A stretch of 64,000 bases of DNA from the NCBI RefSeq assembly GCF_030384885.1, contig NZ_CP128613.1. One strand, written 5' to 3'. The DNA comes from Escherichia coli. Its GTDB lineage: Bacteria; Pseudomonadota; Gammaproteobacteria; Enterobacterales; Enterobacteriaceae. How positions within the stretch are numbered: the stretch's first letter is position 1; each line of letters starts with the position of its first letter. Below the pieces are notes generated by a model. That model was not told the DNA's origin, did not search any database, and saw only the letters and a list, made by a program, of their open reading frames with translations. This document shows positions 51,143 to 51,443 of this stretch, one piece after another. Position numbers and translations under genes: made by a program.

Positions 51143-51443
51143 CTCTACTCTCTCCTTTCGAACATTCTTTGTTCAGACTTCACCATTTTTTAGAGGGTGG
51201 TGATATCAAAATTCGCTCATTTTTATGCCCATCCGTTGGACTTCCTTTTCTGCATTAAAAACAAGTATTGTTTCAATGAGATAAGATTTTCTATGTGATG
51301 AAATGAAAATAATGTAGAGGGAATTTTATCCACAATCCTGATGAACGGGTTCAATTCTGATTGGAATTTGAAAAAGCAGGTGATTTACTGATGTGCGAGC
51401 GTACGTCAGTGGCTGCTGGCCTGAGCGCGGAGGTGTGCGAAAT

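Follow-up and report, generated by a model that had tools for sequence, protein, structure and literature searches.

The 301-bp gap between eicA and yicS as the right edge of the eip/eilA island of Escherichia coli, and a separate deletion of neighbouring purine genes

In a 64-kb segment of an Escherichia coli chromosome running from dnaA to yicH (64,000 nucleotides of contig NZ_CP128613.1; hereafter the window), the start of eicA, which encodes a SicA-like type III secretion chaperone, lies 301 bp (51143-51443) from the stop codon of the backbone gene yicS, and adeQ, yicN and nepI are missing. A preliminary description of this DNA, which had put the distance at about 300 bp, took the gap for the right boundary of an island that had replaced roughly 4 kb of backbone. 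We consider it very probable, taking the whole explanation jointly, that what lies here is the usual right edge of the eip/eilA island, as known from the literature, and that the loss of the purine genes is a separate matter. The island would first have been inserted as a plain block of ~17.2 kb between nepI and yicS, and a later deletion on its left side would have fused the stumps of adeD and iatC at a TAAC motif. The site, gene content and right edge of the island are already known, and the absence of adeQ, yicN and nepI is unrelated to that edge.

An insertion between nepI and yicS

The gene order ade-adeQ-yicN-nepI-yicS, given in the preliminary description, is that of the annotated MG1655 genome (adeD-adeQ-yicN-nepI-yicS-nlpA-yicL-setC-selC). 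The absence of adeQ, yicN and nepI was equally borne out: tblastn searches of the 64-kb window with the K-12 AdeQ, YicN and NepI proteins found none of the three genes at any position, the best match (E=0.018) being to setC, a paralogue of the major facilitator superfamily. The alignment with K-12 that had been proposed covers window positions 64000-51446 and 42376-36788, and its right break, at 51446, falls inside the yicS stop codon, where the right edge of the island had been expected. The interval 42377-51445 is without a K-12 counterpart and has a G+C content (GC) of 33-44%, against ~53% to its left and 48-50% from nlpA rightward. The left break (51446 being the right one) is at window 42376, corresponding to position 19201 of the K-12 stretch (L001), and lies within adeD.

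A survey of 5,426 complete E. coli genomes gave the distribution of the island. The spacer, counted at an identity of at least 95%, is present in 739 of them, as a single copy and always beside yicS, and is thus no chance feature; a query joining eicA, spacer and yicS is covered to at least 80% in 727; across these 727-739 genomes the spacer and eicA are 95-100% identical. A probe for the opposite junction (the 3' 400 bp of nepI, a 202-bp gap and the 5' ~400 bp of iatC, taken from strain 2013C-4282) is likewise covered in 739 genomes, as many as have the spacer, and the K-12 segment nepI-yicN-adeQ-adeD' is retained, at a coverage of at least 80%, in 5,384 of the 5,426. Since both junctions occur in 739 genomes, essentially every carrier has the island between nepI and yicS, with the backbone genes kept. 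The window taken singly would suggest that acquisition of the island replaced some 4 kb of backbone (nepI, yicN and adeQ), with eicA|yicS as the replacement junction, because here none of these genes is present and an adeD stump and yicS flank the island. We give this almost no credence: carriers keep the backbone genes of non-carriers, with nepI adjoining iatC; the nearest relative of the window has all of the genes; the left break falls within the iatC frame as well as within adeD, so that it is the island itself that has been truncated; and the literature places the insertion between yicM (that is, nepI) and nlpA. The preliminary description was thus mistaken in locating the missing genes between the chaperone gene and yicS, the loss being a separate deletion 9 kb from the right boundary.

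When K-12 is compared with a relative carrying the intact island, 17,218 bp take the place of only 48 bp (14508-14555 of the K-12 stretch), which span the last codons of nepI to the stop codon of yicS, the two genes being convergent. On this comparison the island reads as a straightforward insertion, placed between the 3' ends of nepI and yicS, with some 22-48 bp displaced. Its gene order is iatC (also air or eaeX), eilA, eipD, eipC, eipB, orf60, eicA, over ~17.2 kb. Two records among those matched stand apart: in DA33137 (NZ_CP029579.1) bases 1-184 of the spacer alone are matched, and the right edge is disrupted in that strain; and the spacer with yicS also appears on a 13,231-bp record labelled a plasmid (NZ_CP134361.1, strain TUM13936), which is probably a chromosomal fragment.

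Gene content, chromosomal site and nucleotide identity all assign the window's element to the eip locus, or selC-B island, of enteroaggregative E. coli 042 and of sequence type 69 E. coli, which has the same gene set and order (eaeX/air/iatC, eilA, eipD, eipC, eipB, eicA) and occupies the same site, between nepI (yicM) and yicS/nlpA, ~4 kb from selC. In the window the right side of this site is intact, and the left neighbour nepI, deleted here, is present in the nearest relative and in the 739 carriers. The differences are that the adhesin gene has been cut to its last 1.7 kb, iatC being represented by a 3' fragment only, and that DNA from nepI to the middle of adeD is gone. The island was described by Ren et al. 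2004 and Sheikh et al. 2006 (as cited in PMC7058095 and PMC11068852), and according to PMC7058095 the selC-B region is set apart from selC by setC, yicL and nlpA. It accompanies the ETT2 type III secretion system.

The genes retained here lie on the minus strand apart from the iatC remnant. eilA (44159-45856), annotated as such in RefSeq, encodes a HilA-family regulator and scores 943 bits against the HilA/EilA model NF009037 of NCBIfam (cut-off 589). It is followed by eipD (46059-47408), whose product is annotated as, and resembles, an IpaD/SipD-type needle tip protein (Pfam T3SS_TC, E=3.7e-35), and by eipC (47452-48603), which matches no Pfam or NCBIfam family and is assigned by its position between eipB and eipD, the name being that of the literature (PMC11068852). 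eipB (48616-50397) is annotated as a translocon subunit of the SipB/IpaB/YopB type and matches Pfam T3SSipB; orf60 (50453-50635), a 60-residue open reading frame (ORF) listed as hypothetical in RefSeq, had no match in family searches. eicA itself (50645-51142) has a Shine-Dalgarno motif, AGGAGA, 7 nt 5' of its ATG and encodes a 165-residue class II chaperone of the SycD/LcrH family (TIGR02552 LcrH_SycD, 113 bits against a cut-off of 104.8; Pfam TPR_3).

The Salmonella sicA-sipBCDA cluster on pathogenicity island 1 (SPI-1) is arranged likewise, with a class II chaperone gene first, then genes for translocon and tip proteins, and a HilA-family regulator nearby. The likeness has limits: EicA falls under the cut-off of the SicA equivalog model (150 against 184 bits), and the eip cluster has an additional 60-residue ORF between the chaperone gene and eipB, of which we know no counterpart in the Salmonella sicA-sipB arrangement. 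A further difference is that the eip genes lie apart from those of a secretion apparatus, ETT2 being situated at glyU (PMC7058095).

A deletion on the left side of the island

The nearest relative of the window is strain 2013C-4282 (NZ_CP027579.1), which differs from it by 4 single-nucleotide polymorphisms over 20.4 kb on the right and one in-frame 15-bp repeat indel on the left, and which has kept all of the genes in the order uhpT-adeD-adeQ-yicN-HTH/RelE-nepI-iatC (9,678 bp)-eilA-eipD-eipC-eipB-orf60-eicA-yicS (HTH, helix-turn-helix). Relative to this strain the window lacks 13,593 bp (10573-24165 of the stretch L003), and the alignments of the two flanks overlap by 4 bp, TAAC, at 42373-42376, the junction of the adeD and iatC interiors. 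What has been lost comprises the 5' 1,236 nt (70%) of adeD, all of adeQ and yicN, the RelE/HTH toxin-antitoxin pair, nepI, and the first 7,943 nt (82%) of iatC. Beyond what the preliminary description had noticed, adeD too is therefore mostly lost: its last 531 of 1,767 nt remain (41846-42376, minus strand), ending where the K-12 alignment ends and matching Pfam Adenine_deam_C, and tblastn recovers AdeD residues 413-588 alone, at 98% identity, at 42376-41849. On the other side of the junction lies the 3' remnant of iatC, the inverse-autotransporter adhesin gene (42377-44107, plus strand; the last 1.7 kb of 9,678 nt), recognized from the annotation of 2013C-4282, Pfam Invasin_D3/D4 and a partial match to the IatC model of NCBIfam.

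The fusion has created a chimeric ORF (42194-44107) in which 60 codons antisense to adeD are in frame with the last 577 codons of IatC, giving a product of 637 residues. None of the 5,426 complete genomes spans the junction, and iatC is highly repetitive (~290-bp Ig-like repeats at 80-85% identity), of a kind often misassembled, which might suggest an assembly artefact. We regard this as very improbable, given that unique adeD sequence is joined to iatC through 4 bp of identity and not by collapse of a repeat, and that the exact 637-residue product and the junction DNA were found, at 100% identity, in two independent Logan assemblies, SRR34938331 and SRR34489103 (exact look-ups with 640- and 579-residue start variants of the ORF returned nothing). 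Recovery of the same junction from different SRA runs argues that the deletion is real and private to a small lineage. Two considerations tell against this account as a whole: the two runs might share one strain or outbreak, and adeQ, yicN and nepI, which were sought in one 64-kb window, might lie elsewhere in the source genome. The microhomology of 4 bp without repeats points to illegitimate (microhomology-mediated) recombination as the mechanism. Both a signal sequence and a beta-barrel are missing from the fusion product, which on that ground would be unable to work as an adhesin; judged from the sequence, this strain would have lost adhesin and adenine-salvage functions.

The spacer and the right end of the island

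The spacer is of two parts, with a GC of 34.7% at 51143-51384 and 59% at 51385-51445. Its AT-rich portion next to eicA (51143-51397, GC ~35%), for which no counterpart was found in island-free genomes, is island DNA. Backbone homology is unbroken from 51446 when the window is compared with K-12-type empty sites, and from 51443 when it is compared with the empty site of HS-02, which carries the island-type yicS allele. Between these parts, an alignment anchored on yicS brings out a resemblance of 51398-51445 to empty-site intergenic sequence (AGCGTnnGTCAGTnGnTGnTG...TTC), with an insertion of 19-22 bp, and the last ~48 bp of the spacer may thus preserve the former intergenic region in degenerate form (the GC-rich end, 51398-51443, 59% GC, being the probable diverged nepI-yicS remnant). 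The right end of the island is accordingly placed, on the alignments, between ~51398 and 51446. Its exact position is uncertain within this interval, and there are points on the other side: the intergenic similarity is weak; the anchored score was reached by 29 of 5,000 shuffled sequences, with boundaries set after the data had been seen; and an unanchored test of the similarity of 51398-51445 to empty-site sequence was not significant. A duplicated 3' tail of nepI within the spacer, as from target duplication, is suggestive by eye, but was rejected after neither the unanchored nor the anchored test (1,618 of 5,000 shuffles) proved significant.

One island-free strain, O157:H7 TR01 (NZ_CP033605.1), has at its nepI-yicS site (L008, 1452-1499) 24 bp that are usual at the left end of the island (CGTATTTACAGGAGGGTTATTGCT); the site may have been left behind when an island was lost, or may be recombinant. 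It was not relied on as an unaltered empty site from which to place the junction, since it is unique among the 5,426 genomes and apparently mosaic.

Direct or inverted repeats of at least 9 bp, of attachment-site or insertion-sequence type, were not found between the ends of the island, which share no 9-mer in either orientation, and no integrase gene is present in the annotation. The tRNA gene selC (tRNA-Sec, 55624-55718, minus strand, identified by ARAGORN and annotation) is 4.2 kb from the island edge, with setC, yicL, nlpA and yicS in between. An integrase-mediated island at a tRNA site was rejected as a candidate on these three grounds, and the element is therefore not a classical tRNA/integrase island. 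It resembles such islands (for example the locus of enterocyte effacement, LEE, or SPI-3, at selC) in its low GC, its virulence-type cargo and its proximity to selC, and differs from them in not abutting a tRNA gene, in lacking an integrase and end repeats, and in having a convergent pair of protein-coding genes as its neighbours. A fragment of a RhuM-family pseudogene (yicT of K-12) adjoins selC at 55384-55545, and the present strain has no insertion of the selC-A type.

The preliminary description expected the eicA-eipBCD promoter in the spacer, which is a reasonable suggestion. The AT-rich 255 bp would carry an activator-dependent promoter for an eicA-orf60-eipBCD operon; we presume the segment (51143-51397, read on the minus strand) to be the regulatory region of these genes. 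Most likely 51143-51384 contains a promoter dedicated to them that depends on an activator and is probably subject to silencing by H-NS. Several results do not favour this reading. A scan of the minus strand of the spacer, upstream of eicA, for consensus sigma-70 hexamers (-35 and -10, spaced by 16-18 bp) gave no site with at least 9 of 12 matches; a relaxed scan gave four sites with 8 of 12, the best of which differs in the second island allele; and no intrinsic terminator is predicted after yicS, which makes read-through from yicS possible. Promoters that depend on an activator and are silenced by H-NS commonly lack consensus hexamers.

A spacer without a promoter of its own, with eicA-eipBCD transcribed by read-through from the promoter of yicS, would fit these scans, and it would also fit the common orientation of yicS and eicA (both on the minus strand) and the 3' tail of yicS, whose fold does not surpass that of shuffled sequence (z=0.36). 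We nevertheless hold read-through to be improbable, as the spacer is AT-rich and better conserved between the two island alleles (96.7%) than most coding DNA of the island, and as a regulated promoter of their own is implied for eicA and eipBCD by the published dependence of their expression on EilA (Sheikh 2006, as cited in PMC4210603). No Rfam family matches the spacer, and its small ORFs, which are out of frame, overlapping and unsupported, were discarded.

Divergence of the flanks and polarity of the polymorphism

Next to the island the backbone itself is divergent. yicS (51444-51737, minus strand, with its stop codon at 51444-51446), annotated as such in the near-identical strain, is an allele whose product is 87.6% identical to K-12 YicS, and yicS with the yicS-nlpA intergenic region (51446-52045) is 82-85% identical to K-12 in nucleotides; identity of ~98% resumes from the annotated backbone gene nlpA (51946-52764, plus strand) onward. 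On the other side, in 2013C-4282, nepI grows less like its K-12 counterpart as the island is approached, identity dropping from 99% to 88.6% (3' half; L004, 7238-8016), and the island-type nepI is two codons shorter (394 against 396 residues). Relative to the window's allele, yicS of E. coli falls into classes of ~84%, 92-93% and at least 97% identity, and a few island-free genomes (TR01, HS-02 and AHM8C212RI) have island-type yicS or nepI ends; the occurrence of island-type yicS without the island means that yicS is not strictly linked to it. The flank pattern, as read from these sequences, fits an old presence/absence polymorphism, in either direction (gain or loss).

The island too varies in allele. 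That of the window is a minority type, which shares ~93% identity with the common allele overall and ~91% over the tested part of iatC; a second allele shows 93% identity over 9.7 kb. Between two alleles with an overall difference of 7%, the spacer, as noted, is more conserved than eipB (94.8%) or eipC (89.8%), and orf60 (88.5%) is less conserved than its neighbours. Among representatives of other species, no close relative of EicA was found besides one contig: a 10.7-kb piece of a Collinsella sp. metagenome-assembled genome (L007, JAIJJM010000039.1), which is 93% identical to the eip island with yicS and nlpA and is almost certainly mis-binned E. coli. This locus says nothing about the origin of the island.

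The polarity could be reversed, the island and its flanks being older and K-12-like empty sites having arisen by deletion, in which case the boundary coordinates would be the same and the event a loss and not an insertion. The rise of divergence towards the island on both flanks and the island-type yicS or nepI ends of TR01, HS-02 and AHM8C212RI would agree with this, but we judge it unlikely in view of the composition of the island (33-40% GC against ~50% in the flanks), which fits a foreign origin, its presence in only 13.6% of genomes, and the lack of a close relative of EicA in other species representatives apart from the mis-binned contig. There is also a rather small chance that the island is one arm of an old presence/absence polymorphism, maintained as a larger divergent block undergoes homologous recombination, and not the product of a clean mobile-element insertion. 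The block would comprise yicS and its promoter region, both 82-85% identical to K-12, together with the 3' end of nepI, where identity declines to 88.6%; as no terminator follows yicS, its divergent allele could then head the operon of eip translocator genes. We retain the plain insertion between nepI and yicS, followed by a separate deletion, as the preferred explanation.

Elsewhere in the window, dips in identity to K-12 interrupt backbone of 97-99% at two places, inside yicL (88%, 52946-53245) and at the yicI/yicH boundary (92%, 59246-59845). A 3.3-kb segment between ilvN and uhpA (33434-36787) has no K-12 counterpart and contains ORFs of 428 codons (33674-34960) and 512 codons (35150-36688), which are without a Pfam or NCBIfam match and are annotated as hypothetical in 2013C-4282. 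The sole indel against that strain outside the deletion, at window position 36514, is an in-frame 15-bp tandem-repeat unit (TATAAAAAATACAnT) in the 512-codon ORF.

The finding matters little beyond correct annotation, since the site and gene content of the island have been published and ~14% of the complete genomes of E. coli have the same right edge. That adeD, adeQ, yicN and nepI are lost here reflects a private secondary deletion and not a property of the island, and it also destroys the IatC/Air adhesin. The lineage is predicted to be without an adhesin linked to aggregation and biofilm, and without one adenine permease/deaminase route and the NepI exporter, while it keeps eilA and the translocator operon.
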